From the NCBI GenBank assembly GCA_964016885.1, contig OZ024744.1, positions 4,650,001 through 4,714,000 of the forward strand: a DNA stretch of 64,000 nt, read 5' to 3'. The notes below the pieces were generated by a model. That model saw only the letters and a list, made by a program, of their open reading frames with translations. It did no database searches and was not told the DNA's origin. Source of the stretch: Eledone cirrhosa (taxonomy: Eukaryota). This document shows positions 220 through 22,541 of this stretch, one piece after another. The position numbers and the translations under genes are program-made. How positions within the stretch are numbered: position 1 is the stretch's first letter; every line of letters starts with the position of its first letter.

Positions 220-267
220 CTGTCACTTCATGTTTGTCTCATCGAAGTTCTAATTTCATGACTAATT
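220..267 (+). CDS. Putative micro-exon A (48 nt, phase 1-1) of an uncharacterised multi-exon gene; xVTSCLSHRSSNFMTN
   Basis: Acceptor attttgtAG at 218-219 and donor GTAAGTtataatttaaa at 268. Length is divisible by 3. Only the phase-1 frame is open; the other two contain stops. Confidence 0.65.
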
Positions 268-593
268 GTAAGTTATAATTTAAAAATTATCTATTAATTA
301 TTCAGTAATTTATTTATGTTTATATCAGTAAATTTGTAACTAATTAATTCAGAAAAGAATATCACACTTACAAAATTTGATAGTAAATATATATTTACGG
401 AGCTAACCAACCGGGATCCTGGATCTTATAAATATAAATGGTAGGGTCAGCGGGAGTTCGGTATTTCTGTGTTCGGACCTGGTGTATATATCAGTATATC
501 AGAAATAATGAATCTAATAACTGTTTCCAGTATTTGTAATATTATAGGTATATATACATGTAGGTGTACTATTATTTTGCTTATAATTTCTAG

Positions 594-653
594 ATGGCAT
601 CTCACCTTTGTCACCTCGAAATACATCACTAATATTTAGACGAAATAAAAATT
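594..653 (+). CDS. Putative micro-exon B (60 nt, phase 1-1); xGISPLSPRNTSLIFRRNKN
   Basis: Acceptor aatttctAG at 592-593 and donor GTAAGTtataatttaaa at 654. Open in phase 1. Lies in a tandem copy of the exon A unit. Confidence 0.7.
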
Positions 654-801
654 GTAAGTTATAATTTAAATATTGTCTATTAACTTATTCAGTTATTTAT
701 TTAGGTTTTGATCAGTAAATTTATAACTACTTAATTCAGTCAAGAATATCACACTTTATATTATAAACTCCCTAACATAATCAAATATAAACATTTTATT
801 C

Positions 802-1800
802 ACCTCGATCCTCAGAGACCTTGGAATGAGGACAGAAGTAAAGATATACTTTTTCAGGCCATTATCAGAGTTAGCTAAGAAAGAATGACATTATATCTGG
901 TTCAAAAGAGAAGATGAATGTTGCACAAGATACATTGAGGTAGATGGAATTATCTCACAGATTAGTGTTCTCATCTTTAACAAAACTACATCCTACACTT
1001 CTTAACTCTTTCTGGTCTCCCTTCGTTGTTCATACTCCTCATACACGTATCCCCTAGATCAGGCAATACACTCAATATTTGGTTATACCACTATATATAT
1101 TTGTTCTTTAGAACCTGTGAAAACTACAATATATGTCTCATAATTCCAGACATCCCACATATGACTAGCTACACTTTACGGAAGCTTTAGATTCGTGGTA
1201 TACTTTTGCATTTAATTTTATCGAGTAACTGTTTGTGTTTTTCTCCATTGGTATTATTTTGTGCATGTGTATGTGTGTATGTGTGTATGTGTGTGTGTGT
1301 GTGCGTGTATGTGTGTGTGGGGGGGTTTGTGTGTGTGTGTAAGGTTCTGTATGAGCCCTGAGTGTGCGTGTTAAACATGTTATTGACCTCGATCCTCAGA
1401 GACCTTGGAATAAGTTCAAAAGCGAACATACACTTTTTCAGGGCATTATCAGAGTTAGCTAAGAAAGACTGACATTATATCTAGTTCAAAAGGGAAGATG
1501 AATGTTGCACTAGAAATATTGAGGTAGATGGAATTATCTCACAGATCACTGTTCTCATCTTTAACAAAATTTCATCGTACACTTCTTTTAATATTTCTGG
1601 TCTTCCATCACTGTTCATACACCTCATCCTCTTATCGATTAGATCAGCCATTACTGTAAATATTTGGTTATACCACTATACTTATTTGTTCTTTAGGACC
1701 AGTGGGAAACTACATTATTTGTCTCATAATCCCAGACACCCCACATATGACTAGCCACACTTTGCTCCTTTCGGAAGTTCCAGATTTGTGGTATACGTCA
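802..1800 (+). repeat. Direct duplication of ~400 bp of intronic sequence (802-1205 vs 1386-1797) separated by a (TG)n tract
   Basis: acctcgatcctcagagaccttggaat...ttatcagagttagctaagaaag...cccacatatgactagc occurs twice. Confidence 0.9.
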
Positions 1801-1947
1801 GCATGTTATTGACAGAACAAACTGTAGAAATGGTTCTAGCTGATTAAAAAAACGACAACTTTTCTACCACTTCTTCAACTTGACAACAAACTCTTCCCAA
1901 GAAACCCTTCTAGCTTTACTATTATTTTCTTCTGTATTTATTTCTAG

Positions 1948-2025
1948 TCACGAATGAAGAGTTATCTCCTCTAGAGCACTTTATCTCTGAGTCAGATATT
2001 CCAACATGTGGTAACTGGAAAAAAC
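1948..2025 (+). CDS. Putative micro-exon C (78 nt, phase 1-1); xTNEELSPLEHFISESDIPTCGNWKK
   Basis: Pyrimidine tract and tttctAG at 1946-1947; donor GTAAGTtatatttcaaa at 2026. Open in phase 1. Confidence 0.7.
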
Positions 2026-3050
2026 GTAAGTTATATTTCAAACATACTTTCTATTAGTCTGTTCAGTAATTAATACGTCAGTTTCAACATTAACATAAAA
2101 ACGACATTCTCATGTACATTGTGTGTCATATAACGTTATTGTGTATGTGTATCTGTGTGTGGGCGGGGGGGGGGGTATCTGTGTGGGTTCATTTGAATGA
2201 AAATAAAATCGTGCTTGGTTAAGACCATACAAAATGTATTAAGAAAATATGAAGACTGCGGGAAAATGGACATAATGCAGGACAGTCCCTTCCCATCAAG
2301 GAACCTCTGAAGTTCCTTGGTATTTCGATGCATTAAGATCGATTACATTAGCTCCAGTGCACTTAGGACAGTATGAAATGGAGACAAGTTATGACGATTT
2401 GTCTTTCGACTATTTACAAATAAAATATAAATTTTTACAAATCAATATATTGCAACTGACAGTAAGAGTTGGATATGGAATAAGAGTTGGATACAAAGTC
2501 AAACATATCAGCCTAGACTAGAATGTATGTACAGAAGGGGATGTGAGACAGAGAAGGTAGAAGAGACATATTGATATTAGTCCTAAATAGACAGATACAT
2601 CGAACAGGGAGACAGTGAAGTAGAGATCAAATAACTCAGGTGGTGTAAAGTTTCTCTTTCTCACTTCACTTTCCGTGCATACTTTCTCTTCTAGGTTAAT
2701 ATGTTGAACTTATTATCTCTTCTTTTCAGTTGAAATATATTGATCTGTAGCAGATTTTATTAGCTTTGTAAATAGTCGAAAAACTAAGCGTCTTGTCTTG
2801 ACTCCATTTGTAACTGTCCTAAGTGCACTGGAGTTAGTGAGCCGAAATCACAAGGATCTCAAAAAGTCAACTAATGAGACCTGTCCTGTGTTTTATCTGT
2901 TTTTTCCATTTTTCCGTTGTCATCGCCCACATATATTGTATATATATAATCTCTTTTACTCTTTTAACTGTACCAGCCATCCGGCTGAGGCCATTATATA
3001 TATATATATACATGTCAGTTTACTATTATTTTCTTGGTTATGTTTTCCAG

Positions 3051-3107
3051 ATAAACCTTTGATAGAAAATGCTAAGATACAGACATGTAGGTCTGCCTTT
3101 TCAAAGT
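3051..3107 (+). CDS. Putative micro-exon D (57 nt, phase 1-1); xKPLIENAKIQTCRSAFSK
   Basis: Acceptor gttttccAG at 3049-3050 and donor GTAAGTtataatttaga at 3108. Open in phase 1. Confidence 0.7.
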
Positions 3108-3279
3108 GTAAGTTATAATTTAGACACTATCTGCATGTTTCTATATATGGAAGTCTATATCTCGTGTGTGGTGGAACTGATGAATAAAATAAGGTGGATA
3201 AACCCATGTGTGGAGAAACGTTGGTGTTATTGTTGTGCTGATGTATATATGTGAGCCTTGCGAAAACTGATGGTATGTC

Positions 3280-6200
3280 GGAAGAATGACAACAGAAAGT
3301 CCATCATTATCTACGTAAGTTTTTGACTCTGTGCACATAGGAAGGATGATAAAAATTCTAACTACTTAAGATACCCAACAAAGATTACTTGGAGCAATTA
3401 GTAAAATGTACGAAGGCACCAGAGCAAGAGTTATTAGTCCTGATGGTGAAATCAACTATTTTGAAACAGTTGTGGGAACCCTGAATGCGACACTATAGCC
3501 CTTTCTTTTTACAATTGTTTTGGACTAGGGGATGTGCAAGACATACGATGACAGAGAAATAGAGCTTAGCTTTACACTATAAGATAAATAAGCAGAAGAC
3601 ATTCTACAATTACGGTTACAGATCTAGACCTTGCAGACGATCTGGCCCTGCTTACTGAAGAGATAGATTAGGCACAAGAGGTACTAAGCAAATTAGAGCG
3701 GGAGCCAGCGAAGATTGGATTGCATTACAATAGGATGGAAACAGAGTTCCAAGTCTTCAGTCATGATGTACCTGTTGATATCACAGTAAAATGGGGAGAA
3801 ACATTGAATGTTGTTGAAAACTTTAAATATTTAGGATCCTGAACACAGATTTCTGAAAAAAGAATTTTCAGTAGAAAAGCGCTGGTGTGTACAGCGTAAA
3901 ATGATATGGAGCTCCAAGCTAGCAAGAAGACTGGAGGTTACAGTGTTCATGGCTACAGTAGGACACTTAGAAATGCCTTAAAATATAATTTGATAGATGC
4001 TACACCAGAATGGTCAGAATGACACTCAATGGGTTTGGTAACAAATATAGAATTTTATGATGATCTTCCAAAAGGTTCATTAAAAGTTCAACAAAGAAAG
4101 ATGTCACTCACAGGCCACTGTATCAGACACAGGGATGTGGTGGTACACAACTCAGTACTCCGGTAGTATACTGAAGGAAGAAACTGTAGAGGAAAGATGT
4201 CACTCGCAAGCCACTGTATCAGACACAGTGATGGGGTGGTACACAACTCAGTAATCTGGTAATACACTGAGGGAAGAACTTGTAGAGGAAGGATGTTACT
4301 CACAGGCCACTGTATCAGACACAGTGATGTGGTGGTACACAACTCAGTATTTTGGTAATATACTGAAGGAAGAACTTGTAGATGAAGGATGTCACTCACA
4401 GGCCACTGTATCAGACACAGTGATGGGGTGATACACAACTCAGTACTCTGGTAATATACTGAAGGAAGAACCTGTAGATGAAGGATGTGACTCACAGGCC
4501 ACTGTATCAGACACAGTGATGGGGTGGTACACAACTCATTACTCTGGTAATATACTGAAGGAAGAACATGTAGAGGAAGGATGTCACTCACAGGTCACTA
4601 ACAGACACAATGATGGGGTGGTACACAACTCAGTACTTTGGTAATATACTGAAGGAAGAACATGTAGATGAAGGATGTCACTAACAGGCGAATATATCAA
4701 ACACAGTGATGGGGTGGTACACAACTCAGTACTCTGGTAATATACTGAAGGAATAACTTGTAGAGGAAGGATGTCACTCACAGGCCACTGTATCAGACAC
4801 AGTGATGGGGTGGTACACAACAGAGTACTCTGGTAATATACTGAATGAATAACTTGTAGATGAAGGATGCCACTCACAGGCCACAGTATCAGACACAGTG
4901 ATGGGGTGGTACACAACTCAGTACTCTGGTAATATACTGAGGGATGAACCTGTAGAGGAAGGATGCCACTCACAGGCCACTGTATCAGACACAGTGATGG
5001 GGTGGTACACAACTCAGTACTCTGGTAATATACTGAGGGAAGAACCTGTAGAGGAAGGATGTCACTCACAGGCCACTGTATCAGACACAGTGATGTGGTG
5101 GTACACGTCTCAGTACTCTGGTAATATACTGAGGGAAGAACCTGTAAAGGAAGGATGTTACTCACATGCCACTGTATCAGACACAGTGATGGGGTGGTAC
5201 ACAACTCAGTACTCTGGTAATATACTGAGGGATGAACCTGTAGAGGAAGGATGCCACTCAGAGGCCACTGTATCAGACACAGTGATGGGGTGGTACACAA
5301 CTCAGTACTCTGGTAATATACTGAGGGATGAACCTGTAGAGGAAGGATGCCACTCACAGGCCACTGTATCAGACACAGTGATGTGGTGGTACACGTCTCA
5401 GTACTCTGGTAATATACTGAAGGAATAACTTGTAGAGGAAGGATGTTACTCACATGCCACTGTATCAGACACAGTGATGGGGTGGTACACAACTCAGTGT
5501 CCTGGTAATATACTGAGGGAAGAACCTGTAGAGGAAGGATGTCACTAACAGCCCACTGTATCAGACACAGTGATGTGGTGGTACACAACTCAGTGCTCTG
5601 GTAATATACTGAGGGAAGAACCTGTAGAGGAAGGATGTCACTCACAGCCCACTGTATCAGACACAGTGATGGGGTGGTACACAACTCAGTACTCCGGTAA
5701 TATACTGAGGGAAGAATTGTAGAGAAAGTATGTCACTCACAGGCCACTGTATCAGACACAGTGATGTGGTGGTACACAAATCAGTACCCTGGTAATATAC
5801 TGAAGGAAGAACCTGTAGAGGAAGGATGTAACTCACAGGTCACTAACAGACACAGTGATGTGGTGGTACACAACTCAGTACTCTGGTAATATACTGAATG
5901 AGGAACTTGTAGATGAAGGATGTCACTCACAGGCCACTGTATCAGGAAACGGTGATGTGGTGGTACACAACACAGTACTCGGGTAATATACTGAATGAGG
6001 AACTTGTAGATGAAGTATGTCACTCACAGGCCACTGTATCAGACACAGTGATGTGGTGGTACACAATTCAGTACTCTGGTAATATACTGAATGAGGAACC
6101 TGTAGAGGAAGGATGTCACTCACAGGGCACTGTATCAGACACAGTGATTTGGTGGTACACAATTCAGTACTCTGGTAATATACTGAATGAGGAACCTGTA

Positions 6201-9200
6201 GAGGAAGGATGTCACTCACAGGCTACAGTATAACACACAGTGATGTGGTGTTACACAACTCAGTACTCTGGTAATATACTCAAGGAAGAACCTGTGGAGG
6301 AATTATGTCACTCACAGGCCACTATGAGTCACAATGATGGGGTGGTACACAACTCAGAACTCTGGTAATATACTGAAGGAAGAATCTGTAGAGGAAGTAT
6401 GTCACTCACAGTCACTGTATCAGACGCAGTTATGGGGTGGTACACAACTCAGTACTCTGGTAATGTAAAGAGAGAAGAACTTGTAAAGGAAGTATGTCAC
6501 TCACGGCCACTGTATCAGACACAGTGATGGGGTGGTACACAACTCAGTACTCTGGTAATATACTGCAGGAAGAACATGTAGAGGAAGGATATCACTCACA
6601 GGCCACTGTATCAGACACAGTGATGTGGTGGTACACAACTCAGTACTCTGGTAATATACTAAAGGAAGAACCTGTAGAGGAAGGATATCGATCACAGGCC
6701 ACTGTATCAGACACAGTGATGGAGTGGTATACAACTCAGTACTCTGGTAATATAGTGAAGGAAGAACCTGTAGAGGAAGTATGTCACTCACAGGCCACTA
6801 TCAGACACAGTGATGGGGTGGTACACAACTCAGTACTCTGGTAATATACTGAGGAAAGAACATGTAGCGGAAGGTTGTCACTCACAGGCCACTGTATAAG
6901 ACACAGTGATAGGGTGGTACACAATTTAATACTCTGGTAATATATTGAAGGAAGAACCTGTAGAGGAAGGATGTGACTCACAGGCCACTGTATCAGACAC
7001 AGTGATGGGGTGGTACACTACTCAGTACTCTGGTAATATACTGAAGGATGAACATGTAGAGGAGGGTTGTCACTCACAGGCCACTGTATCAGACACAGTG
7101 ATGTGGTGGTACACAACTCAGTACTCTGGTAATATACTGAAGGAAGAACCTGTAGAGGAAGGATGTCACTCACAGGTCACTATCAGACACAGTGATGGGA
7201 TGGTACACAACTCAGTACTCTGGTAATATGCTGAAGGAATAACCTGTAGAGAAAGCTTGTCACTCACAGGCCACTGTATCAGACACAATGATGTGGTGGT
7301 ACACAACTAAGTACTCGGGTAATATACTGAAGGAAGAACCTGTAGACGAAGGATGTAACTCACAGGTCACTAACAGACACAATGATGGGGTGCTACACAA
7401 CTCAGTACTTTGGTAATATACTGAAGGAAGAACATGTAGATGAAGGATATCACTAACAGGCGAATATATCAAACACAGTGATGGGGTGGTACACAACAGA
7501 GTACTCTGGTAATATACTAAAGGAATAACTTGTAGATGAAGCATGTCACTCACATGACAAAGTATCAGACACAGTGATGGGGTGGTACACAACTCAGTAC
7601 TCTGGTCATATACTGAAGGAAGAAAATTAGAGGAAGGATGTCACTCACAGGCCACTGTATCAGACACAGTGATGTGGTGGTACACAATTCAGTACTATGG
7701 TACTATACTGAAGGAAGAACCTGTAGAGGAGGGATGCCACTCAGAGGCCACTGTATCAGACACAGTGATGGGGTGGTACACAACTCAGTACTCTGGTAAT
7801 ATACTGAAGGAAGAATCTGTAGAGGATGTATGTCACTTACAAGCCACCGTATCAGACACAGTGATGTGGTGGTACACAACTCAGTATTTTGGTAATATAC
7901 TGAGGGAAGAACTTATAGAGGAAGGATGTTACTCACAGGCCACTGTATCAGCCACAGTGATGTGGTGGTACTCAATTCAGTACTATGGTAATATCCTGAA
8001 GGAAGAACCTGTAGAGGAAGGATGCCACTCACAGGCCACTGTATCAGACACAATGATGGGGTGGTACACAACTCAGTCCTCTGGTAATATACTGAAGGTA
8101 GAACCTGTAGAGGAAGGTTGTTACTCACAGGCCACTGTATCTGACACAGTGATGTGGTCGTACACAACTCAGTACTCTGGTAATATACTAAAGGAAGAAC
8201 CTGTAGAGGAAGGATATCACTCACAGGCCACTGTATCAGACACAGTGATGTGGTCGTACAAAACTCAGTACTCTGGTAATATACTAAAGGAAGAACCTGT
8301 AGAGGAAGGATATCACTCACAGGCCACTGTATCAGACACAGTGATGGAGTGGTATACAACTCAGTACTCTGGTAATATAGTGAAGGAAGAACCTGTAGAG
8401 GAAGTATGTCACTTACAGGCCACTATCAGACACAGTGATGGGGTGGTACACAACTCAGTACTCTGGTAATATGCTGAGGGAAGAACATGTAGCGGAAGGT
8501 TGTCACTCACAGGCCACTGTATCAGACACAGTGATAGGGTGGTACACAATTTAAGACTCTGGTAATATATTGAAGGAAGAACCTGTAGAGGAAGGTTGTC
8601 ACTCACAGGCCACTGTATCAGACACAGTGATAGGATGGTACACAATTTAATACTCTGGTAATATATGGAATGAAGAACCTGTAGAGGAAGGATGCCACTC
8701 ACAGTCCACTGTATCAGACACAGTGATAGGGTGGTACACAATTTAATAATCTGGTAATATATGGAATGAAGAACCTGTAGAGGAAGGATGCCACTCACAG
8801 TCCACTGTATCAGACACAGTGATGTGGTGGTACACAACTCAGTACTCTGGTAATATACTGAAGGAAGAACCTGTAGAGGAAGGATGTCACTCACAGGTCA
8901 CTATCAGACACAGTGATGGGATGGTACACAAATCAGTACTCTGGTAATATACTGAAGGAAGAATCTTAGAGGAAGGATGTCACTCACAGGCCACTGTATC
9001 AGACACATTGATGGGGTGTTACACAACTCAGTTCTCTGGTAAGATACTGAAGGAAGAACATGTAGATGAAGGATGTCACTAACAGGCCACTGTATCAGAC
9101 ACAGTGATGGGGTGGTACACAACTCAGTACTCTGATAATATACAGAGGGAAGAACATGTAGAGGAAGGTTGTCACTCACAAGCCACTGTATCAGACACAG

Positions 9201-12200
9201 TGATGTGGTGGTACACAACTCAGTACTCTGGTAATATACTGAAGGAAGAATATGTAGAGGAAGGATTTTACTCACAGGCCACTGTATCAGACACAGTGAT
9301 GGAGTGGTACACAACTCATACTCTGGTAATATACTGAGGGAAGAACATGTAGAGGAAGGTTGTCACTCAATGGTCACTATCAGACACAGTGATGGAGTGA
9401 TACACAACTCAGTACTCTGGTAATATACTAAACGAAGAACCTATAGAGGAAGGATTTCACTCACAGGCCAATGTATCAAACACAGTGATGGGGTGGTACA
9501 CAACTCAGTACTCTGGTAATATACTGAAGGAAGAATCTTAGAGGAAGGATGTCACTCACAGACCACTGTATCAGATACATTGATGTGGTGGTATACAACT
9601 CAGTACAATGGTAATATACTGAAGGAAGAACCTGTAGAGGAAGTATGTCACTCACAGGCCACTGTATCAGACGCAGTTATGGGCGGGGGGGGGGGTACAC
9701 AACTCAGTACTCTGGTAATGTAAAGAGGGAAGAACTTGTACAGGAAGTATGTCACTCACGGGCCACTGTATCAGACACAGTGATGGGGTGGTACACAACT
9801 CAGTACTCTGGTAATATACTGCAGGAAGAACATGTAGAGGAAGGATATCACTCACAGGCCACTGTATCAGACACATTGATGGGGTGGTATACAACTCAGT
9901 ACTATGGTAATATACTGAAGGAAGAACATGTAGAGGAAGGATGTCACTCACAGGCCACTCTATCAGACACAGTAATGTGGTGGTACACAACTCAGTACTC
10001 TGGTAATATACTGAAGGATGAACCTGTAGAGGAAGGATGTCACTCACAGGCCACTGAATCAGACACAGTGATGGGGTGGTACACAACTCAGTACTCTGGT
10101 AATATACTGAAGGAAGAATTTGTAGAGGAAGGATTTTACTCACAGGTCACTGTATCAGACACAGTGATGGAATGGTACACAACTCATACTCTGGTAATAT
10201 ACTGAGGGAAGAACATGTAGAGGAAGGTTGTCACTCAATGGTCACTATCAGACACAGTGATGGAGTGATACACAACTCAATACTCTGGTAATATACTAAA
10301 GGAAGAACCTATAGAGGAAGGATATCACTCACAGGCCAATGTATCAAACACAGTGATGGGGTGGTACACAACTCAGTACTCTGGTAATATACTGAAGGAA
10401 GAACATGTAGAGGAAGGATGTCACTCACAGTAAACTGTATCAGACACATTGATGTGGTGGTATACAAGTCAGTACTATCGTAATATACTGAAGGAAGAAC
10501 CTGTAGAGAAAGAATGTCACTCACAGGCCACTGTATCAGACGCAGTTATGGGCGGGGGGGGGGTACACAACTCAGTACTCTGGTAATGTAAAGAGGGAAG
10601 AATTGTACAGGAAGTATGTCACTCACGGGCCACTGTATCAAACACAGTGATGGGGTGGTACACAATTCAGTACTCTGGTAATATACTGCAGGAAGAACAT
10701 GTAGAGGAAGGATATCACTCACAGGCCACTGTATCAGACACAGTGATGGCGTGGTATACAACTCAGTACTATGGTAATATACTGAAGGAAGAAACTGTAG
10801 AGGAAGTATGTCACTCACAGGCCACATTCAGACAATGTGATGGAGTGGTACACAACTCATACTCTGGTAATATACTGAGGGAAGAACATGTAGGGGAAGG
10901 TTGTCACTCACAGGCCACTGTACCAGACACAGTGATAGGGTGGTACACAATTTAATACTCTGGTAATATACTGAAGGAAGAACCTGTAGAGGAAGGATGT
11001 CACTCACAGGCCACTCTATCAGACGCAGTGATGTGGTGGTACACAACTCAGTACTCTGGTATTATACTGAAGGAAGAACCTGATGAGGAAGGATGTCACT
11101 CAAAGGTCACTATCACACACAGTGATGTAGTGATACACAACTCAGTACTCTGGTAATATACTAAAGGAAGAACCTATAGAGGAAGAATGTCACTCACAGG
11201 CCAATGTATCAAACACAGTGATGGGGTGGTACACAACTCAGTACTCTGGTAATATACTGAAGGAAGAATCTTAGAGGAAGGATGTCACTCACAGGCCACT
11301 GTATCAGACACAGTGATGTGGTGGTACACAACTCAGTTCTCTGGTAAGATAATGAAGGAAGAACATGTAGATGAAGGATGTCACTAACAGGCTACTGTAT
11401 CAGACACAGTGATGGGGTGGTACACAACTCAGTACTCTGATAATATACAGAGGGAAGAACCTGTAGAGGAAGGTTGTCACTCACAGGCCACTGTATCAGA
11501 CGCAGTTATGAGGCCGGGTGTACAGGACTCAGTACTCTGGTAATGTAAAGAGGGAAGAACTTGTACAGGAAGTATGTCACTCACGAGCCACTGTATCAGA
11601 CACAGTGATGGGGTGGTACACAACTCAGTACTCTGGTAATATACTGCAGGAAGAACATGTAGAAGAAGGATGTCACTCACAGGCCACCGTATCAGACACA
11701 GTGATGTGGTCGTACACAACTCAGTACTCTGGTAATATACAGACGGAAGAACCTGTAGAGGAAGGATGTCACTCACAGGCCACTGTATCAGACACAGTGA
11801 TGGGGTGGTACACAACTCAGTACTCTGGTAATATACTAAAGGAAGAACCTGTAGCGGAAGGATGTGACTCACAGGCCACTGTATCAGACACAGTGATGGA
11901 GTGGTACACAACTCATACTCTGGTAATATACTGAGGGAAGAACATGTAGAGGAAGGTTGTCACTCACAGGCCACTGTATCAGACACAGTGATAGGGTGGT
12001 ACACAATTTAATACTCTGGTAATATGCTGAAGGAAGAACCGGTAGAAGAAGGATGTCACTCACAGGCCACTCTATCAGACGCAGTGATGGGGTGGTACAC
12101 AACTCAGTACTCCGGTAATATACTGAAGGAAGAACTTGTAGATGAAGGATGTCACTCACAGGCCATTGTATCAGACACATTTATGTGGTGGTACACAACT

Positions 12201-12460
12201 CAGTACTCTGGTAATATACTGAAGGAAGAACCTTTAGAGGAAGGATGTCACACGCAGGCCACTGTATCAGACACAGTGATGGGGTGGTACACCACTCAGT
12301 ACTCTGGTAATATACTGAAGGAAAAACCCTTCTCGAAAATGAAAATGACCTACGTGGTCACTTTGGTAGAAGACTGATAGATGTAGATAGTAGAGGAGGT
12401 CAAGACAATCATAAATGACCTTGTGGAATAGAGGGAAGTGTGGAATCAGTGGAGCATCCC
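3280..12460 (+). mobile_element. Degenerate RTE-type LINE (RT 3' half), split by an internally derived 96-bp satellite
   Basis: Translations FDSVH, MYEGTRARVISPDGE, TDLDLADDLALL, VENFKYLGS and DDLPKGSLKVQQRKM up to ~4100. The element resumes after the array as KMTYVVTLVED..EEVKTI at ~12340. Multiple stops and frameshifts. Confidence 0.8.
4096..12322. repeat. 96-bp tandem satellite, about 86 copies
   Basis: Consensus aggccactgtatcagacacagtgatggggtggtacacaactcagtactctggtaatatactgaaggaagaacctgtagaggaaggatgtcactcac. It explains all the 32-aa periodic ORFs in the track. Confidence 0.98.
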
Positions 12461-12593
12461 ACTGGTTGGCGGAGTATAGGATAAGATATGTATATATGTG
12501 TGTGGTGGATGGTACACAACGTTGTCGTATAAGTGTGGGTGTGTGCAACCATAAATGCAGCTTCTAGGGGCAGTTGTGATGATTATAGAAAAT

Positions 12594-13071
<478 letters not shown>

Positions 13072-13074
13072 AGA

Positions 13075-13250
13075 TAATAATAACTTCAAAAATCATGCTT
13101 GATGGGAACAGCAAGAACCCTGCGATATGTCCTGAATGTCTGAGTATGCAGGTAGCGGCTTGATATTCATTTCAACAAACTTTCCAGTTAAATAACATTA
13201 ATGACTGAGACTCAAAGAATAATAATAATGATAATGATAATAATAATAAT
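13075..13250 (+). mobile_element. 3' end of an R4/Dong-like (RLE) non-LTR retrotransposon
   Basis: Translation LQKSCLMGTARTLRYVLNV* resembles the QK...LGTARILRKVL C-terminus of this clade. A short UTR and an (AAT)n tail follow. Confidence 0.6.
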
Positions 13251-13520
13251 GTTTCCTTTATTAACCACAAGGGTTGACACAAAATATAACATTAAGGACA
13301 GCACAGGACGGTGCAAATGGGCATTTCCGCGTGTAAAGAAAATAAAACAAAGGAACTGACAAAAAAAGGAAACAAAAGAAAATTTCCCAATAGGAGGGAG
13401 ATTTCCGAGGGACACTCGCGGAGAAAGCCCATTAAAAAAGCGACAGAGGGACACTCGAGGAGAAAGCCCATTAAAAAAGCGACAGTGGCGCGTGTTTCGT
13501 TATTGGTTAGCTCAAGGTTC
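13251..13520 (-). mobile_element. Probable retroelement 3' tail with a ~39-bp internal tandem duplication
   Basis: The minus strand ends ...cccttgtggttaataaaggaaac followed by (ATT)n. gagggacactcg(c/a)ggagaaagcccattaaaaaagcgaca is repeated twice at 13407-13485. Confidence 0.4.
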
Positions 13521-13640
13521 GATCTATATCGATCTAGCCAAACTGTGGAATCAAAAGATCGTCGAACCTGTCTGTTGGTAAGGACTATATACATATATAT
13601 GTGTGTGTACGGTTGCTATTATATTGTTTATTTCTTCCAG

Positions 13641-13703
13641 ACAAGCTTTACAGAGAGCCTGCTACTTATGAGTCACTCAAGTATAAAGATATTTTTATGA
13701 ATC
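13641..13703 (+). CDS. Putative micro-exon E (63 nt, phase 1-1); xKLYREPATYESLKYKDIFMN
   Basis: Acceptor tttcttccAG at 13639-13640 and donor GTAAGTtataatttaaa at 13704, followed by the conserved intronic block. Open in phase 1. Confidence 0.72.
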
Positions 13704-15054
13704 GTAAGTTATAATTTAAACACTATTAAATTGTTCAGAAATAAATATAGGTTTTGAACATTAAATTTATAACGACTTACTTCAGTCCAGAATATTAAAC
13801 ATTATATGAAATACGACTTAACAGAAACCAAAATAAAATCCATTTGAATCCCACCATCTTTCCCACAAGATACATTGAAGAATGGACGAAATATTAAGGC
13901 TGTCTTTTAACAAAAGCAAAGAGAGATGGGCAAAATATTAATAGAAATACATATACGGTAGACATGTGACTGAATGTACTCAAAACACCTTTTAAAGTGT
14001 ACAACACCACATATATATATATGTGCGTGTGTACAAATATATATATACTCAGTTCTGAGCTGAATTTGTTGCTGTACCCCAAATACAGGAGTCGATGTCT
14101 CATCAGGTGGTGAGGTAACTCTGTACGTGTTTCAGCCTCTTCTACTGCGACACGAGAGTTACTCAGGTCCACCCTCCGATGTTGGCAAGGAAACTCCTGC
14201 TGCACAACACAATCTTAATTGAGTCTGATGTTCCACCTAAATGTATCAAGAGCACCATTCATTTCAATCAGATGTAATGACTCGCTTCCTCGGGTTTCTC
14301 AGAGTGTTCCCTTTCCTTTGCCACCAGTCCAAGTACCCTGAGGAGCGAGAGAGCCCTGGTTTCCACAAATCCTCTGACATGGAAACAGGATGCCTCCCAT
14401 TAGCAGGTTCCACAGAGTTCAACCAAATCACAGTACTTCCTGGAATTCCTGTTGAATGCCTCATGGCTGTTCCCCTCTCAAGGGACAGTTAACTTCACAG
14501 TTTTCACCAAGATCTATTCCATGCACCACAAGACAAGATGGAAAAAAGGGGGCAGTGGGATTTGCCATCCATGTTAAATGAGATCACCCAGATGCCCTGC
14601 AATTTTGTGTTAGTCGTATTTCTTATATCAAACTTGCAATGTTCTCCTTCTTTATAAAACTTGCCGTTGTTCAACCCCTTCAATCTAACACCCACTGTAT
14701 CAGCCAGTACTCTAAGCCATATATTTCTGTTCATCAGGGCCAGTGTTTCATGGTTCAAATCTTACCACATTTACGCAGGCCACTGTCTGCTAATTTCAAA
14801 AGTTTTAGATTTGTGTGACAGAGAAGCATAGCATAGAAAGCGTGAACCAGTGAAAAGGTTCTAGTTGGTTCAAACAACCACAACACCTTCTGCCCGATCT
14901 TCAACTCGACCAAAATCACCTCCCATGGTACACATATAGGATTGTTATTATTTTCTTTCGTATTTTTTTGCAGACATGACTCCAAGAGAGACCATTTTCC
15001 TCGACCTGTTCTTTTAGTGGAATAGGATGTGTGTGTGTGTGTGAGCAAGCATAA

Positions 15055-15760: not shown

Positions 15761-15836
15761 TACCCATTCTACTACCCTAAGTATTGAGTACTCTGGTGCG
15801 TTATGGTCCATCTGGTTCCTTACCACAAATCCTTCG

Positions 15837-15950
<114 letters not shown>

Positions 15951-15956
15951 TTATAT

Positions 15957-15999
<43 letters not shown>

Positions 16000-16034
16000 C
16001 ACAGGATTACTAATATTCTGTATATATTTTTCAG

Positions 16035-16085
16035 ATGGCCCTTCCACTGTGACACCAATCAAGCATACACGTACTTTTAAAAAGC
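16035..16085 (+). CDS. Putative micro-exon F (51 nt, phase 1-1); [17 protein letters not shown]
   Basis: Acceptor tttttcAG at 16033-16034 and donor GTAAGTtataatttaaa at 16086, followed by the conserved intronic block. Open in phase 1. Confidence 0.72.
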
Positions 16086-16397: not shown

Positions 16398-16463
16398 GCG
16401 AGCTTTCCGTAAAATTTCCTATCAAGGAGTCGCACGCGCCAACTAAAAATATATTTACAACAT
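16398..16463 (+). CDS. Putative micro-exon G (66 nt, phase 1-1); xELSVKFPIKESHAPTKNIFTT
   Basis: Branch-point-like ctgac/ctaat upstream, ttttttttccAG at 16396-16397, and donor GTAAGTtaaattttaaa at 16464. Open in phase 1. Confidence 0.7.
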
Positions 16464-16579
16464 GTAAGTTAAATTTTAAACACCTATTAGTTTTTACGGA
16501 ATTGTATACTGTGATATTTTATTAATTGGAATAAAAACCACCAGAATCTACACAGCTTGCCAACAAGATGGATGTGTAC

Positions 16580-17222
16580 TTATTTATTCCGGGAAATAGA
16601 ATCCTTTAGTTTTAGAGGCGGTGAATTCATCAAAGATATATTTTGTAGCCGTTTGGTTGTTGAATTCTTTTCCTTTAACATGTTCTTGAAATGCATCAAA
16701 AAGTAATAAATAGCAAATAACAGTTGGCAAATTATTCGCTGAGTAAGCTGAATTACGCAGAATTTTGTAGCCCAAGCCATTCAATTTCCAGATTGTTGTA
16801 TGTCTGAAGTGAGTTTGGGCATTGTCGTGCAAGTAGATAGGAAATTTCTTCCATTGGCCAATGCTAGACACATACGCTATCTTTGTTTCATTGTGACAAT
16901 GCTTCTCAGCTGTGATTGTTTCGCCAAGATTCAGAAAGCTGCATTACATTAATTCGGATGCAGCCACCAAACAATTACCTTAGTCATCTTTTGTGGTTAT
17001 GTTGCTTTTTGAACTTGTAGAGGAGTTTTATTCCTGTCCAACCACCGTACTGAACCTGGTCAGTTTCTGTACAGGATTTACGTTTCATCGCATGTAACAA
17101 TGCCATCAAGAAATGAATAGTTTTCCTTGCACAAAAGAAACGAAGATCAAACTTCGAAACTGATTTCCTGTTGTTCATTCAATCCAAGTAGCACCCATTT
17201 TTCAAGTTTCTTTCACATTCCA
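16580..17222 (-). mobile_element. Degenerate mariner (Tc1/mariner, DD34D-type) transposase fragment
   Basis: IYLHDNAQTH...KLNGLGYKILRNSAYSANNLPT...KGKEFNN matches the mariner LLHDNARPH and PPYSPDL region. Frameshifted. Confidence 0.85.
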
Positions 17223-17227
17223 GCTCC

Positions 17228-17319
<92 letters not shown>

Positions 17320-17321
<2 letters not shown>

Positions 17322-17461
17322 CAAATTTAATATAGAAATGGCTTCTACAGGACTAGAATTGTTTCATTTGATGGAAGTTTAGTGAATTTAGTGGCCCTGG
17401 TGATTTCCTTTGAATGAAACAGTTCTATTCCTCTAGAAGCGATTTCTATATTAGATTTGTT
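17320..17461. repeat. Fold-back hairpin (arms ~57 bp) next to microsatellite
   Basis: aacaaatttaatatagaaatggcttctacagg...ggaa pairs with ttcc...cctctagaagcgatttctatattagatttgtt. Confidence 0.88.
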
Positions 17462-17684
17462 GTATACACTCTACTAATATATTGAGTAACTTAGTTGCTG
17501 TGGTTGCCTCCGATTCAACACGGGACTCTCATATATGTGCATATATATATATATGTATTAATAAGAGGAATTCCAACTTTGTCTGATTTACTCGTTTTAT
17601 TTACAATCCTTTAAAATTTATAATGGTATTATAATGAAATAGTATGATAGAATATTAAATTCTAAGTGTTGTTATTAATAACAA

Positions 17685-19062
17685 AAAACAAATCCTCGAT
17701 TCCCATTATGCCAAACCCATGACTTCCAAACATCTGATCCACCGAAACTCGGCTGTTTCGGACCATACCAAAATCAACATACTGATTGCGGATTTGGTAC
17801 AAGTGATGAGAAACGTGTCCCGCATGTGCAACCCCGAAGGACTAGAGAGACACATACAACACTTCATCCACCGTATGCAGTTCTCTGCTTACAATCAGAG
17901 AGATAGAATCAGAGTGTATAGAGGAACCAGAACCAAATGGGAAAAAATGGTAAATAATGACACAAATGGGACCTGCCCCTTGTATGGGAGCAAATTTTGG
18001 AATAGAATAGAAAGAACTAGGAATAAGGCTAATAGAATAAACTCATGGTATGATAGCAATAAATACCAGAGTGTAATGTTCATCGATACAACCCCTAGAG
18101 GTGAATTAGCTTACAAATTTAGAAGGGCCCTAGATAAGCATAAACTCAATATTAAGATAGTAGAAAGACCAGGTACCTCCGTAAAAACACTTATTAGCAA
18201 GACATACCCTTTCCAAAGACCGACCTGTATAGATAAGAAATGTATAACCTGTAAAATAAGCCCCCATATTAACTGTAAAACTAGAAATGTAGTGTATAGC
18301 ATAAGATGTACTGAAGGATAATGTAGAGACAAAAATATAGTGTACATAGGTGAGACAGTTCGTAGTGTAGGGGAACGGATAAATGAACACTGGCGAGACC
18401 TTCAAGATAGTAAAGAATCATCTGTACTCTACCAACATGCTAAAATAGAACATAAGGGTAAATTAGAGAACATAGAAATAAAATAGAATCTACACACAGA
18501 AAAGACGCAATGTTTAGACAAATCACAGAGGCAATAAACATAAAAGAATTACAACCAAAATTAAATAGAAAATATGAGTGGAACAGCAACATCACAACTT
18601 ACAATTAAGGACAAAATGAAAACACACACACACATAGAACAAACAACCAACCGGTAACATGTAAATAAACAAATAAATAAACAAATATGAACACACACAG
18701 ACACCCAGACGTGGCGCATGCGCAGACTGAGCACACAACACATACACATAAACAAAATGGCGTAGGACAGAACAAAGGAGAGGCACAAAAACAAAGAAAA
18801 TAATCCCCAGTCACTGAAGAGGTCACATAATGTGTGACGAAAGAACTTTGACAATATATAAACAACTATCTGGTTGTGGAACCAACCAACCAACCAGAAA
18901 TTTATAAATTCCTGAATTTATAAATTTATTATAATAAATTGAAGTGAAAGCAACCGGTGCGTGTGTTTCTTATTGGCAACATGACCCTCCCAAAGTATAA
19001 CAATATCGGTTTCAACACACGATTTCAGATAAAGAATCTTGCTAAACAAATTCAGAAACGAA
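17685..19062 (+). mobile_element. 5'-truncated Penelope-like element (RT thumb, GIY-YIG endonuclease, pLTR)
   Basis: ORF 17719-18321 (HYAKPMTSK...CIDKKCITC...CKTRNVVYSIRC), then past a stop IVYIGETVRSVGERINEH. A hammerhead lies in the 3' repeat. Confidence 0.88.
18810..18852 (+). ncRNA. Minimal type I hammerhead ribozyme (Penelope pLTR)
   Basis: Stem I GUCA/UGAC; core CUGAAGA; stem II GUCACAU/GUGUGAC; GAAA; minimal stem III G-AA-C; cleavage triplet CUU. Confidence 0.65.
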
Positions 19063-19192
<130 letters not shown>

Positions 19193-19206
19193 ATATATGT
19201 ATATGA

Positions 19207-19536
19207 TTAAGAGCTCCTTTTCCCTTTGAGAGGTTTTGTTTTTAGTCCTGCAGGATGTCCAAAGTCACCCTCCTCACCAAGAAACCTTGGTGGGGTGGTG
19301 GGGTTGTCAGTTTAGTCGCCAACGCCCCGACCATGAGACAGATTGTACCGGGATACATGGGACATACATACATACATACATACATACATACATACATACA
19401 TACATACATACATACATACATGTATGTATGTAAATACATATAAGTATGTATGTAAATACATATATGTATGTATGTAAATATATATATGTATGTATGTAAA
19501 TATATATATGTATGTAAATATATATATGTATGTATG

Positions 19537-19587
<51 letters not shown>

Positions 19588-19944
19588 AAAAAGAGATGAA
19601 ATCGAAAATGCAACTGAAGTCTTATTTTTTAAAAAAATATATATATTTATTTGGTTCCTTTACCGGTTTCGGAGTTCTTCACATGTGAGAAAAACCACAG
19701 ACCCTCCATCTCAACTCACCTTTTGAAACGCAGAAGAACTGCGAAACCGGTAAAGGAACCAAATAAATATATATATATTTTTTTTAAATAAGACTTCAGT
19801 TGCATTTTCGATTTCATCTCATTTTCTTTATACTTCCACTCGTGTAGGACACCTCGGTTATTTTTCATTTTGTAAAAAAAACCTCACTTTCTAATATATA
19901 TATATATATATACATATATACATACATATATATATATCTATCTA

Positions 19945-20034
<90 letters not shown>

Positions 20035-20205
20035 AGGTCATCAGTTGGTGCTACTGGTAACATGTATCCCAGTACAACCTGTGTCATGGTCGGGTCGTTG
20101 GCGACTAAACTGGCAACCCCACCAAGGTTTCTTGGTGAGGAGGGTGACTTTGGACATCCTGCGGGACTAAAACCAAATCCTGTCAAAGGGCAAAGGACCT
20201 CTTAA
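19207..20205. repeat. Inverted pair of a ~150-bp element (19207-19359 vs 20061-20205), probably a LINE 5' UTR
   Basis: caggatgtccaaagtcaccctcctcaccaagaaaccttggtgggg...cagtttagtcgccaacg is the reverse complement of 20095-20163. Confidence 0.85.
19593..19820. repeat. Fold-back repeat (arms ~88 bp) with a hammerhead-like motif at 19719-19756
   Basis: gagatgaaatcgaaaatgcaactgaagtcttattt...ttggttcctttaccggtttcg and its reverse complement. The right part reads CCUU-UUGAAAC-GCAG..CUGC-GAAACCGGUA-AAGG. Confidence 0.85.
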
Positions 20206-20807
20206 GAATCAATGGCCATCCAAAATCACTGGGAGAGATGACCCCTTAGCCTTTGTCAAGGCAGAATTCTAGGAGAAGGAAAACTCTGATATAACACCTG
20301 CAACCCTGATGGTATCCAATGATGTTGACTTGTTCTTTTTGGTAAATATAATCTTGGTCAAGAGAGTGGGACTGATTTTGTGCAGTGCCTTTGCTCACTA
20401 TAAAAGCTTCATGGCACAGGCATTGCTTTATATCTGGAGATCTCTCTGCACTTGTCGTCACATGGGACCATGGGCCCAGCACTATGTTTCAATAATTGTC
20501 ACAAGTGTAGTGTTTGTACCAGAGTTTTCAAGTTGCTGGCTGGACTAAAAAGTCACACTCATTCAGCGCATCGGTAGGGGTTCTCCTACATGGATATAAA
20601 GTAGTGGCTGTACTCGAAAACGAGTTGGCAGCCACCATATATATATATATATATGTATATTATTATTGTTGTTGTCGTTATTATTATTGTTGTTATTATT
20701 ATTACTATTATTGTTATTAATATATATATATATATATGTGTATATATATATATGTTTTTTTTTCTCGTGCAATGGCCATACTCGATAACGAAGGGGAAGC
20801 TATCATA

Positions 20808-20852
<45 letters not shown>

Positions 20853-20890
20853 GAGAAAGGGAGAGAGATAGAAAGTGAGAGAGAGAATGA

Positions 20891-20989
20891 GAGGCTCGTC
20901 TGGAAAAAATAACGAAGAAAATAATAGCAAACCCTCTCTCTCTCTCACTTTTTCCTTATTTTCTTCGTTATTTTTTCCAGACGAGCCTC
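20891..20989. promoter_or_regulatory. Perfect 34-bp inverted repeat covering the 3' splice site of exon H
   Basis: gaggctcgtctggaaaaaataacgaagaaaataa (20891-20924) is the exact reverse complement of 20956-20989. A regulatory role is inferred only. Confidence 0.6.
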
Positions 20990-21043
20990 ACGTAGAGACT
21001 CCGGTCAATGATACATTCGTGAATGACTGTACATATACACAGT
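20981..21043 (+). CDS. Putative micro-exon H (63 nt, phase 1-1, GC donor); xEPHVETPVNDTFVNDCTYTQ
   Basis: Acceptor ttttttccAG at 20979-20980. The donor reads GCAAGTtataatttaaa at 21044, a GC variant of the family donor. Open in phase 1. Confidence 0.6.
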
Positions 21044-21240
21044 GCAAGTTATAATTTAAACATTCACATTTTCAAAAACTCTTCTAATGCTTACTCCTAG
21101 ATCTCCTTTAAGCTCTCAAACAGCTGTGGGGGGATTTGCTTTCACCAAAGTCTTCAAGTTATCCACCTTCCTTATTTCCTTGTCCTCAAGAATTAATTCA
21201 CCACAATGGGACTTTTGGAAACCATATATATATATATATA

Positions 21241-21421
21241 GAAGTTAGTTCCAAGAGGTCACGGGTTTTACCTTGCGGATTTTCAACTCGAGTAACTGGG
21301 CTATAGCCGAAGAACGGAAGGCTACCGTTCTTCGGCTATAGCCCATACACTCGAGTTGAAATCTGCAAGGTGAAACCCCTGTCCTTGAAAATGGTTTATT
21401 ATCTGTTGTGGAACTAACTTC
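21241..21421. repeat. Fold-back hairpin (arms ~55 bp, plus outer 12-bp IR) following (TA)n
   Basis: gggttttaccttgcggattttcaactcgagt..tgggctatagccgaagaacgg / ccgttcttcggctatagccca..actcgagttgaaatctgcaaggtgaaaccc. Outer gaagttagttcc / ggaactaacttc. Confidence 0.88.
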
Positions 21422-21603
21422 GAAGGAAACTCGTCCATGGACTGAGTGCTCTACTACTGCGACTATAACCTCCGTGTTCTACATATAAATATATGTATTT
21501 ATATTTGTGTGGGGTTTTGCATGTATACTTATGTGCCTATTGTTCAATCGTATATCTTCATTTAATTTTTATTTTTTTCTTATTTTAGCCAATTCTTCCC
21601 CAG

Positions 21604-21651
21604 ATTCGTTTGACTAGGATTCTCCCATATTTGAGCATACAACTATGGAAG
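21604..21651 (+). CDS. Putative micro-exon I (48 nt, phase 1-1) with an in-frame TAG at 21615-21617; xSFD*DSPIFEHTTME
   Basis: Acceptor ttcttccccAG at 21602-21603 and donor GTAAGTtgtaatttaaa at 21652. Same architecture as the other exons, but with one stop in the shared frame. Confidence 0.5.
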
Positions 21652-22137
21652 GTAAGTTGTAATTTAAACTCACTTTTATAAAATATATTGTATATTTAAA
21701 TGTATTATGTCATTCTTTCATATTCATTTATATGTTATATATACCTGTGTTTTTTTATGTTGAGATAGGTCAAAAAGCATTTAAATAATAAATATGTACA
21801 CCATTTTTAATTGTAACAAACTCTCAACGTCTTGTTAAATTTAAAATTTCTGATATTGACATCCATATCAAAATAATCTAAAGACATTAAAAGACCATTC
21901 ATTGACTTATTGAACCACGGCGACTGAGGAAGGTCCACAGCTGCATTTTCCTACAAGATGTTCTACAATAACATTAGTCCTAAATTGTTAATCAGTTTTT
22001 TTTTTCCGCCACCCTTTCGGACCTCACAGACTACTAAATTCATAATTTCAAATCCCGCGAGCTTAGCAATATTGAAATAAATTAGAATTATCAAGAATAT
22101 AAAACGACCGCAGTTGAAAGGTATATACAAATACACA

Positions 22138-22442
22138 TCTACACTTTAGCCGTCATTTTTACGGCACGGGGTCAGCTAGTCTACTAATATAAAAGCCGAG
22201 TGTATTTGTCCGGAACGCTCGAGAGATGTGGAAAAAGGAAGGGGTGGTTACGTTGACTGAGGAAGGAGGGTGTGAGAAACTATAGAAGTCAAGTATTCTA
22301 AGATTCGTCACAGCTGAGTGTTTGCATGTTCGTATCACTTGTGTGAGTGGGCTCGAAGGAAGCAACCAACCAACAAACGACTCTTTTTTATATTATATAT
22401 AGATATTACAATTAGCCGTCATTTTTGACGGCATGGGGCTAG
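22138..22442 (+). mobile_element. Head-to-tail pair of non-autonomous Helitrons (42 bp + 263 bp)
   Basis: A^TC start at 22138. The hairpin gccgtcattttt(g)acggc followed by CTAG occurs at 22176 and 22439. The second unit starts TCTACTAATATAAAAG. The insertion sits between A and T with no TSD. Confidence 0.75.
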
Positions 22443-22533
22443 TTGTTAAATAGCATACGAAACAATTATAGTTGTCCACTTATCACATTATATATACATG
22501 TAAGTTTACTGTGATTTTTATGTTTGTTTTCAG

Positions 22534-22541
22534 ATATGTAG
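22534..22541 (+). CDS. Putative terminal exon, coding part (x-Met-stop), followed by a 3' UTR
   Basis: Strong acceptor tttgttttcAG at 22532-22533. Phase-1 reading is AT ATG TAG. No family donor follows, and AATAAA lies at 22729-22734. Confidence 0.4.

Follow-up and report, generated by a model that had tools for sequence, protein, structure and literature searches.

The window analyzed here, a stretch of 64,000 nucleotides of the Eledone cirrhosa genome (contig OZ024744.1, positions 4,650,001 to 4,714,000), contains a series of very short exon-like segments and raises the question of whether they belong to a protein-coding gene and, if so, of what kind. A preliminary description had proposed nine such segments, each with an acceptor and a near-identical donor, and all nine were found on the + strand where it had placed them (Table 1), each preceded by a T-rich AG acceptor and followed by a donor that has 0 to 2 mismatches to a 17-mer. 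Eight of the nine are open in one phase-1 frame, as had been claimed, and base shuffles give P = 2.7e-4 for at least 8 of 9. All nine lengths are multiples of three (3n), a count that does not represent nine independent trials because the window exons are homologous copies. For the ninth exon, proposed as 48 nt from 21604, we prefer a start at 21589 and a length of 63 nt, since the tract there is stronger and the corresponding exons of two paralogues are open and 63 nt long; its TAG lies 34 nt upstream of the last junction and is also carried by an inverted twin copy of the gene (~99% identical). The terminal exon predicted at 22534 was borne out. The exon with the GC donor is identical in the C18 paralogue, and in the C28:28.86 Mb paralogue its donor is GT. 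We considered the 96-bp tandem array as a giant coding exon and rejected this, as 20 of 82 spacings are not 3n and even the best + frame is interrupted by a stop in 16 of 59 full-length units.

Table 1. Features of the window (positions count from its first nucleotide).
Feature	Position	Strand	Remarks
Phase-1 internal exon	220..267	+	48 nt; 60-nt class with 12-nt loss
Phase-1 internal exon	594..653	+	60 nt; 60-nt class, diverged
Phase-1 internal exon	1948..2025	+	78 nt; 66-nt class with 12-nt gain towards the 5' end
Phase-1 internal exon	3051..3107	+	57 nt
Intronic 96-bp tandem array, not coding now	4096..12328	.	~86 copies; neutral control inside the gene
Phase-1 internal exon	13641..13703	+	63 nt; 3 of 63 bases differ in the C18 orthologue
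Decayed unit, probable pseudo-exon	14945..15020, end approximate	+	family-type acceptor at 14974, then no family donor
Phase-1 internal exon	16035..16085	+	51 nt
Phase-1 internal exon	16398..16463	+	66 nt
Phase-1 internal exon	20981..21043	+	63 nt; GC donor
Penultimate (ninth) exon	21589..21651	+	63 nt; in-frame TAG at 21615-21617
Terminal exon	22534..22750, 3' end approximate	+	two residues, TAG, 3' UTR; AATAAA at 22729

On sequence evidence, the nine exons belong to a gene of ~130 kb with ~127 predicted exons, of which they form the diverged 3' tail. The expectation that the 5' part of a coding gene lies upstream is supported by the first exon and ~115 further exons found there, and the gene model runs from a 226-nt first coding exon through ~125 phase-1 exons of 48 to 78 nt to the terminal exon. 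All but two of the modeled exons (125/127) are 48 to 78 nt and 3n, with modal lengths of 60 and 66 nt. The description of the exons as sequence diverse is accurate for the nine in the window but fails for the ~115 upstream, where most exons are near-identical within each of two types and come as doublets of 60 and 66 nt. In this gene all 121 called units are 3n and 120 are open, with 0 to 1 units on the opposite strand. Decayed units occur towards the start of the array as well as within the window. No family units shorter than 48 nt were found in a search down to 20 nt; the frame-blind caller applied to seven copies covers exons of 30 nt and longer.

A genome scan with the 17-mer, which the preliminary description had suggested as a route to more exons and paralogues, returned both, with 254 exact matches against 4 for a reversed control, and among the 100 matches listed, 97 sit on C18 or C28 in clusters that each keep to one strand. 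The gene has at least 16 copies; those placed lie on both strands and span 51 to 224 kb, and in 16 of 16 the first and last exons match in order and strand. The first exon has 17 genomic matches, 2 of them broken, and the terminal exon has 29, 19 of them over its start or body. The first coding exon is 220 or 226 nt among genes, so that phase 1 is kept across a 6-nt indel, and in six of the seven regions read one and the same codon serves as the terminal stop, either TAG or TAA (TAG in the window, TAA in four paralogues). A recent origin of the terminal TAG by mutation was considered and rejected: the stop is ancestral, and it is the C18 type that reads through. Copies differ greatly in size, with 3, 20 (part read), 24, 28, 73, 121, and 280 called units in the seven that were read. 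The repeating blocks are doublets of 60 plus 66 nt (~1.5 kb, with an intron of 621 to 629 nt) or triplets of ~1.78 kb. Frameshifts are present in three copies, among them the largest, whose exons 46, 57, and 63 out of 280 shift the frame, and the copy at 45.25 Mb, with one such exon; together with the broken first exons, they indicate that some copies are decaying or rely on exon skipping. Exons of 58 and 61 nt occur in the copy at 43.2-43.4 Mb.

Across the seven copies, 538 of 549 units called without regard to frame were 3n and open, which supports the proposal that the gene grew by duplication of symmetric phase-1 exons. Exons fall into eight length classes between 48 and 78 nt, all 3n, while gaps in the neighboring intron flanks are mostly 1 to 2 nt and are 3n in only 25 of 219 cases. 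In a set of 128 distinct 3n exon sequences, the numbers interrupted by a stop are 74, 119, and 3 for the three frames, and on exon trees ~14 to 17 nonsense changes would be expected, whereas 1 is known there. Three units bear a stop, namely the last of 121, the last of 24, and number 272 of 280, and the frame is intact in 73 of 73 units of the C18 copy and 28 of 28 of the 34.1 Mb copy. Some calls were corrected: 90- and 92-nt calls from a first pass (71 and 2, respectively) became open 60-nt exons with an acceptor matrix trained on introns, and two 98-nt calls reflected second donor-like sites behind real 60-nt exons.

Constraint on the protein differs along its length. Residues 1 to 45 of the first exon have dN/dS values of 0.06 to 0.41 between three gene types, whereas between types residues 46 to 75 show 0 synonymous against 2 to 6 nonsynonymous changes; in close C28 pairs, dN/dS is 0.6 to 0.7 or all changes are nonsynonymous. 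Micro-exon dN/dS is ~1.0 to 1.4, which alone is no different from neutrality. In 36 of 36 doublet pairs, which are not independent, the exons are more divergent than the mid-intron between them, and two doublets of the C18 gene differ by 0.21 at nonsynonymous sites against 0.03 in the intron; higher exon G+C and the gapped intron alignment account for part of this excess. Pair and tree counts are nonindependent throughout because of concerted evolution.

The predicted product of the window copy is 2,653 residues long and rich in S (15%), T (10%), P (9%), K (8%), and E (8%), with 142 S/T-P sites. Its first exon encodes a strongly basic N-terminus with two invariant cysteines and a helix moment of 0.66 over residues 9 to 28, and a hydropathy scan detected no signal peptide or membrane segment (best 9-residue window 0.8, best 19-residue window 0.65). 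The earlier suggestion that the product is disordered is likely to hold, with the FoldIndex of the repeats near 0 being borderline by this measure rather than strongly disordered.

Taken together, we consider it probable that this is an octopod family of coding repeat proteins built by exon amplification. As the sequences show, the array grew by tandem duplication of exon-plus-intron blocks (the 60- plus 66-nt doublets, or triplets), a process that exon symmetry makes harmless to the frame. Blocks are homogenized within a gene and diverge between genes, with array ends such as the nine window exons escaping homogenization and drifting, and whole genes were then copied by segmental duplication, often inverted. 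Selection retains the open frame, the splice flanks, and the N-terminal ~45 residues while leaving repeat residues free to change at neutral or faster rates. We infer that splicing joins the exons in a single long mRNA and that the product is an intracellular, unfolded protein, reaching ~5,800 residues in the largest copy if broken exons are skipped. The basic amphipathic helix, two cysteines, and an arginine run may form an anchor, either a lipid-modified membrane anchor or a nucleic acid or chromatin contact, and the S/T-P-rich repeats could act as a spacer tuned by phosphorylation. The trait that varies would be the length of this spacer, determined chiefly by unequal crossing-over in the genome and secondarily by exon skipping. 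The anchor and phosphorylation steps are suggested by motif reading and analogy. From the ampliconic, fast-evolving pattern we also offer the tentative guess, possible rather than probable, of a germline (testis) role.

A different purpose for the exon symmetry was suggested by the preliminary description, which likened the gene to schistosome micro-exon genes (MEGs); symmetric exons would then serve combinatorial skipping and supply a pool of variants for recognition or evasion. The phase 1-1 structure of every exon fits this, as does the excess of exon over mid-intron divergence in the doublet pairs, although base composition and alignment gaps explain part of it. The contrast between repeats and N-terminus in dN/dS recalls the difference between mature and signal regions in MEGs (PMC4350168), and the frameshifting exons of the largest copy need to be skipped if it is fully expressed. 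We nevertheless regard this reading as unlikely. The product has neither signal peptide nor membrane segment, its length of ~2,650 residues compares with fewer than 190 in MEGs, and its exons measure 48 to 78 nt where the majority of MEG exons measure 15 nt. Within one gene the exons are mostly identical or nearly so, and skipping would therefore yield length variants and not new sequence; symmetry is equally the condition for tolerating genomic duplication and needs no splicing purpose. Quite unlikely, in our judgment, is the more far-reaching proposal of an independent, much larger, nonsecreted counterpart of MEGs, in which a private octopod family of giant genes, with a fast-diverging repeat type per copy, would skip hundreds of exons combinatorially and would thereby give each cell or individual its own set of isoforms of a scaffold inside the cell, with gamete compatibility, germline conflict, and neuronal identity as examples of possible roles. 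If true, genes with up to ~280 exons would be among the most exon-rich known.

The family could also be formerly coding, with the window copy or most copies now pseudogenes within recent segmental duplications. The TAG in the penultimate exon shared with the inverted twin, the broken first exons and frameshifts, and the decayed units, both within the window and early in the array, are compatible with this. That TAG, however, costs only ~13 residues. Decay of mRNA is usually escaped when a stop lies within 50 to 55 nt of the last junction, and this stop is inside that distance. The other 120 units of the gene are intact, among them eight diverged, single-copy exons in the window that are beyond repair by homogenization, as are all those of the C18 and 34.1 Mb copies; we judge the pseudogene reading to be improbable. 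A noncoding satellite or mobile repeat whose unit contains splice-like words by chance is far less credible still. It would explain why flanks are better conserved than the stretch between them and why a 1.5-kb tandem repeat makes up much of the array, but not the confinement of each cluster to one strand, the single open frame of three, the eight 3n length classes set against intron gaps of mostly 1 to 2 nt, the ATG and stop exons that bracket the arrays in 16 of 16 copies, or the synonymous TAA/TAG swap of the terminal stop. A dispersed repeat in random orientation without 3n bias had been named as the outcome that would count against a gene, and we instead observed single-strand clusters with frame constraint.

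In its mode of growth the octopod family resembles the exon amplification of DAZ and NBPF rather than schistosome MEGs. DAZ on the primate Y is multicopy and inverted-duplicated, with a small exon and its intron amplified inside the gene, a ~24-residue repeat per exon, and repeat numbers that vary among copies through amplification with pruning (PMC2322974). The octopod family shares the inverted-duplicated copies, the exon-plus-intron amplification, and the copy-specific repeat number. DAZ, however, has an RRM domain and 8 to 24 repeats, whereas the octopod genes have no known domain, up to 280 exons, and two or three alternating exon types, and we found no sequence relation. NBPF/Olduvai (DUF1220) is likewise a lineage-specific family with exon doublets tandemly amplified in higher-order blocks (PMC9313022), but Olduvai doublets consist of ~52 plus >140 nt that are not each a repeat unit, while each octopod exon is symmetric. 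A Pfam scan of the exon-1 product gave no match over the cutoff to any family, RRM, DAZ repeat, and Olduvai domain included. Long runs of small duplicated exons, each with one low-complexity repeat, also occur in titin PEVK and ANKRD36, and in titin length is tuned by exon skipping. Those repeats adjoin folded domains of known families, none of which was detected here. MEGs have 10 to 20 exons per gene of 6 to 81 nt, the majority 15 nt (bioRxiv 10.1101/2023.06.21.545858), and combine small symmetric exons and a fast-evolving body with a conserved N-terminus and species-specific expansion (PMC4350168; bioRxiv 10.1101/2023.06.21.545858), features that the octopod coding region largely parallels. 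They differ in having a signal peptide, products of up to 189 residues, and demonstrated alternative splicing, against 125 to 280 exons, thousands of residues, and predicted splicing in the octopod family, and MEGs as a class are confined to flatworms, whereas this genome carries molluscan hemocyanin genes with seven units, of a type that marks it as octopod.

The exon-1 protein had no match at E ≤ 0.01 among longer or similar-length proteins, and the only weak Pfam hits were 2 below the cutoff. In an HMM search, 2 of 1.84 billion representatives matched, and both were rejected as chance: a 3,500-residue bacterial repeat protein that summed weak stretches and a low-complexity sequence of 346 residues. 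These searches cover exon 1, as single micro-exons encode only 15 to 25 residues. Rfam returned 0 matches for window positions 1 to 34000, and a literature search on cephalopod or octopus microexons and mollusc tandem exons returned nothing on the family (subscription journals and most supplements were outside its scope). A family of very large genes, with a gene span of >1.5 Mb in E. cirrhosa, has no representative in a protein library that does include Octopus proteins. Such genes are invisible to open reading frame tracks and easily masked as repeats, and cephalopod gene catalogues may miss the family for this reason. It offers a clean natural experiment on how symmetric exons allow a protein to expand from tens of repeats to hundreds, in which broken copies and the intronic satellite serve as built-in controls, and, if skipping is combinatorial, it would add a second route to protein diversity in a group known for RNA-level diversification.

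Octopus annotation tables in paper supplements could hold partial models of the family. A search with the terminal exon returned no RNA record. Three sequencing runs from one sample (X1 to X3), searched over positions 20950 to 22810, gave contigs that cross introns, are DNA-like, and are uninformative on expression, with none of the listed joints corresponding to an exon junction; at 21617 and 22541 the contigs have T and C, as in the C18-type paralogue, where the window copy has G at both.

All nine short segments previously described in the window were recovered, each behind a T-rich tract and AG and each a multiple of three in length, with eight of the nine open in phase 1 as claimed (P = 2.7e-4 for at least eight in base shuffles), and the donors behind all nine differ from GTAAGTTATAATTTAAA by no more than two mismatches. 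The best reading of the ninth exon is 21589-21651 (63 nt), which contains an in-frame TAG. In the terminal exon proposed at 22534, phase 1 does continue, for two residues to a stop, and an AATAAA lies at 22729. Because the units are homologous, with flanks that align and length differences that are internal gains and losses of multiples of three, the nine lengths do not count as independent trials. The preliminary description had also placed the 5' part of the gene upstream, and when we read 150 kb upstream of the window to trace the array, it ran on for ~100 kb, with the window's nine exons as its diverged tail. We modelled 125 micro-exons in this gene (71 of 60 nt, 46 of 66 nt, and eight of other lengths divisible by three), the 60- and 66-nt exons mostly alternating in ~1.5-kb tandem blocks. 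The first coding exon has an ATG, ends in phase 1 after 226 nt, and carries a family-type donor, and the full model comprises 127 exons over 130 kb, encoding 2,653 residues up to the first stop. The 5' end of the array holds two decayed units: a tail-type exon with a stop, and a 66-nt unit that has lost its acceptor, although an in-frame AG follows 15 nt downstream. In other gene copies, fallback acceptors of this in-frame kind produce 45-nt calls.

An exact match to the donor is present 254 times in the genome, versus 4 times for the reversed control, and 97 of the first 100 places listed fall in single-strand clusters on chromosomes C18 and C28, the latter carrying the window at 4650001-4714000. 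The exon-1 peptide has 17 genomic matches (65-100% identity) and the terminal region 29, of which 19 were taken as exon matches and 10 were left out as a short 3' piece only or a second fragment. Every first exon placed on a chromosome (16 of 16) pairs with a same-strand terminal exon 51-224 kb downstream. A further first exon, which sits on a small contig, has no partner, and neither do three of the terminal matches. We read six further copies besides this gene, five of them in full and the sixth over 60 of its 103 kb, and each copy read has its own dominant repeat types, with 73 called units in the copy at C18:5.2 Mb, 280 in triplets in that at 43.2-43.4 Mb, and only 3 in the 28.8 Mb copy, whose first exon is frameshifted. 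This gene and its inverted twin, 4.3 Mb apart, are ~99% identical over the parts aligned. The C18 gene type, whose first-exon peptides are 95-96% identical to that of the window's gene, has lost the ancestral stop and has ~19 additional C-terminal residues. More near-identical gene ends lie on small contigs C159 and C1507, which may be alternative haplotypes.

Unit calling used intron features alone and was blind to frame; 538 of 549 calls in seven copies proved to be open multiples of three; 3 contain a stop and 8 are of other lengths, two of them double calls, which leaves six true frameshifts. Of 130 distinct sequences in the first-pass set, 128 had lengths divisible by three; 74 of these contain a stop in one frame, 119 in another, and 3 in the third. 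As controls, gaps in flanking introns are multiples of three in 25 of 219 cases, the ~625-nt intron within the doublet (the 60- plus 66-nt exon pair) takes 2-23 gaps per pair versus none in its two exons, and 20 of 82 spacings in a 96-bp tandem array in the intron 3108-13640 are not multiples of three. For 73 different 60-nt exons and 37 different 66-nt exons, parsimony trees carry 395 changes, among which neutrality would predict 14-17 nonsense changes. Units with a stop and those of the window itself had been removed before this count, and one 60-nt unit with a stop is known in the set. All three stops sit in the last or nearly last exon (121/121, 24/24, and 272/280), a pattern noticed post hoc. 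In 16 of 17 copies exon 1 keeps phase 1 with a length of 226 or 220 nt; it is broken by a TGA in one copy and by frameshifts in another. Its residues 1-45 have a dN/dS of 0.06-0.41 between three gene types. At the terminal stop, this gene and its twin have TAG and four other copies have TAA, while the C18 type reads through to a later stop. Combined, these lines of sequence evidence argue strongly, if indirectly, that the family is spliced and translated.

The TAG in the penultimate exon of the window's gene, common to the twin and missing in two paralogues, could signal gene death or a tolerated trim. It removes ~13 residues and lies 34 nt ahead of the last junction; transcripts usually escape mRNA decay when a stop is within 50-55 nt of that junction, and this mRNA should therefore escape. 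A tolerated trim is the more likely reading.

Repeat exons have a dN/dS of about 1.0-1.4. Across 101 pairs, selected by downstream flank, exon divergence is 0.185 versus 0.100 in upstream and 0.084 in downstream flanks, and exceeds the upstream value in 83 pairs and falls below it in 18. Exon divergence is also higher than that of the central part of the shared intron in all 36 pairs compared, the excess being clear in some (0.167 versus 0.028) and slight in others (0.159 versus 0.143). The pairs are not independent, G+C is higher in the exons, and intron distances are reduced by gapped alignment; we therefore take the pattern to reflect relaxed to mildly diversifying selection. An excess of exon over intron divergence has been described in duplicated primate families, NPIP and ANKRD36B among them, in the part of that study available (PMC3906575). 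Two observations speak against a simple account. Between this gene and the C18 copy, exon 20981 is unchanged but exon 21589 has 9 differences in 63 bases, and the introns differ by 2-3%. Synonymous divergence in residues 1-45 (0.26-0.45) is also far above flank divergence (0.04-0.09), which points to patchy gene conversion.

In the modelled product half of the residues are S, T, P, K, or E, net charge and FoldIndex are near zero, 142 S/T-P sites occur (66 followed by a basic residue), and the hydropathy profile shows neither a signal peptide nor a membrane segment. Residues 1-45 are strongly basic and contain an arginine run, a predicted amphipathic helix (moment 0.66), and invariant Cys14 and Cys28. 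Protein searches, in a collection that includes Octopus vulgaris proteins, found no homologue. We infer an intracellular anchor-plus-spacer protein, whose head would bind membrane via lipid-modified cysteines, or nucleic acid, and whose tail would be an unfolded, phosphorylation-tuned chain differing in length between copies. Germline expression is a guess, made by comparison with ampliconic families.

The preliminary description had likened the gene to schistosome micro-exon genes, and small symmetric exons and a fast-evolving body are indeed shared; as far as the available portions of the sources describe them, the assignment fails on the size and the number of the exons, on the signal peptide, and on the taxon (PMC4350168; bioRxiv 10.1101/2023.06.21.545858). 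The available parts of two other accounts describe DAZ, where one small exon is likewise amplified within multi-copy inverted genes (PMC2322974), and NBPF, where exon doublets are amplified (PMC9313022). The family belongs to neither, though amplification works alike. Literature searches, which miss most subscription journals, found no paper on it. The exon-amplification process is already known; the family is real and previously unrecognised, and it merits further work for its scale (125-280 tiny exons per gene and no fewer than 16 genes), its lack of a known domain, and its absence from protein libraries.

Locations of family genes and other elements (C, chromosomes or contigs of the same genome, G000; L011, stretch upstream of the window)
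Feature	Position	Remarks
This gene	C28:4542721-4672790 (+)	first coding exon 4542721-4542946
Inverted twin	G000:C28:88502-220429 (-)	
C18 gene type	C18:5.15-9.38 Mb; C28:126.7-126.8 Mb	six copies, mixed orientation; one copy
Decayed units	L011:8050 and 8464-8537 (C28:4548050-4548537)	
(ACC)n-like repeat, 2 kb	L011:100-2120 (C28:4540100-4542120)	just upstream of first exon; also in both paralogues compared
96-bp tandem array	window 4096-12328	intron of gene; also in matching intron of C18-type copies
Penelope-like fragment	window 17659-18318	within intron of gene
Two near-identical Penelope-like ORFs	window 26037-28230	opposite strands, inverted; overlap around 26.9-27.4 kb; GIY-YIG match in one
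Degenerate 5/20-bp satellite (ACACC/ACTAC type), ~30 kb	window 34587-64000	GC skew -0.85 (extreme); broken near 44.5-48.4 kb by a LINE
LINE-like ORFs	window 45756-48059	reverse transcriptase, then PHD-finger match
Hemocyanin genes	C1:173.74-173.91 Mb; C26:21.93-22.02 Mb	three in tandem; inverted pair

The 96-bp array may descend from a coding repeat, because one plus and one minus frame are mostly open (stops in 16 and 8 of 59 units); diverged relatives occur on C2, C3, C15, and C17. Elsewhere, the genome holds at least five seven-unit molluscan hemocyanin genes and a partial match on C27; the available part of one account gives seven units for octopods and Nautilus and eight for squids and cuttlefish (PMC4491423).
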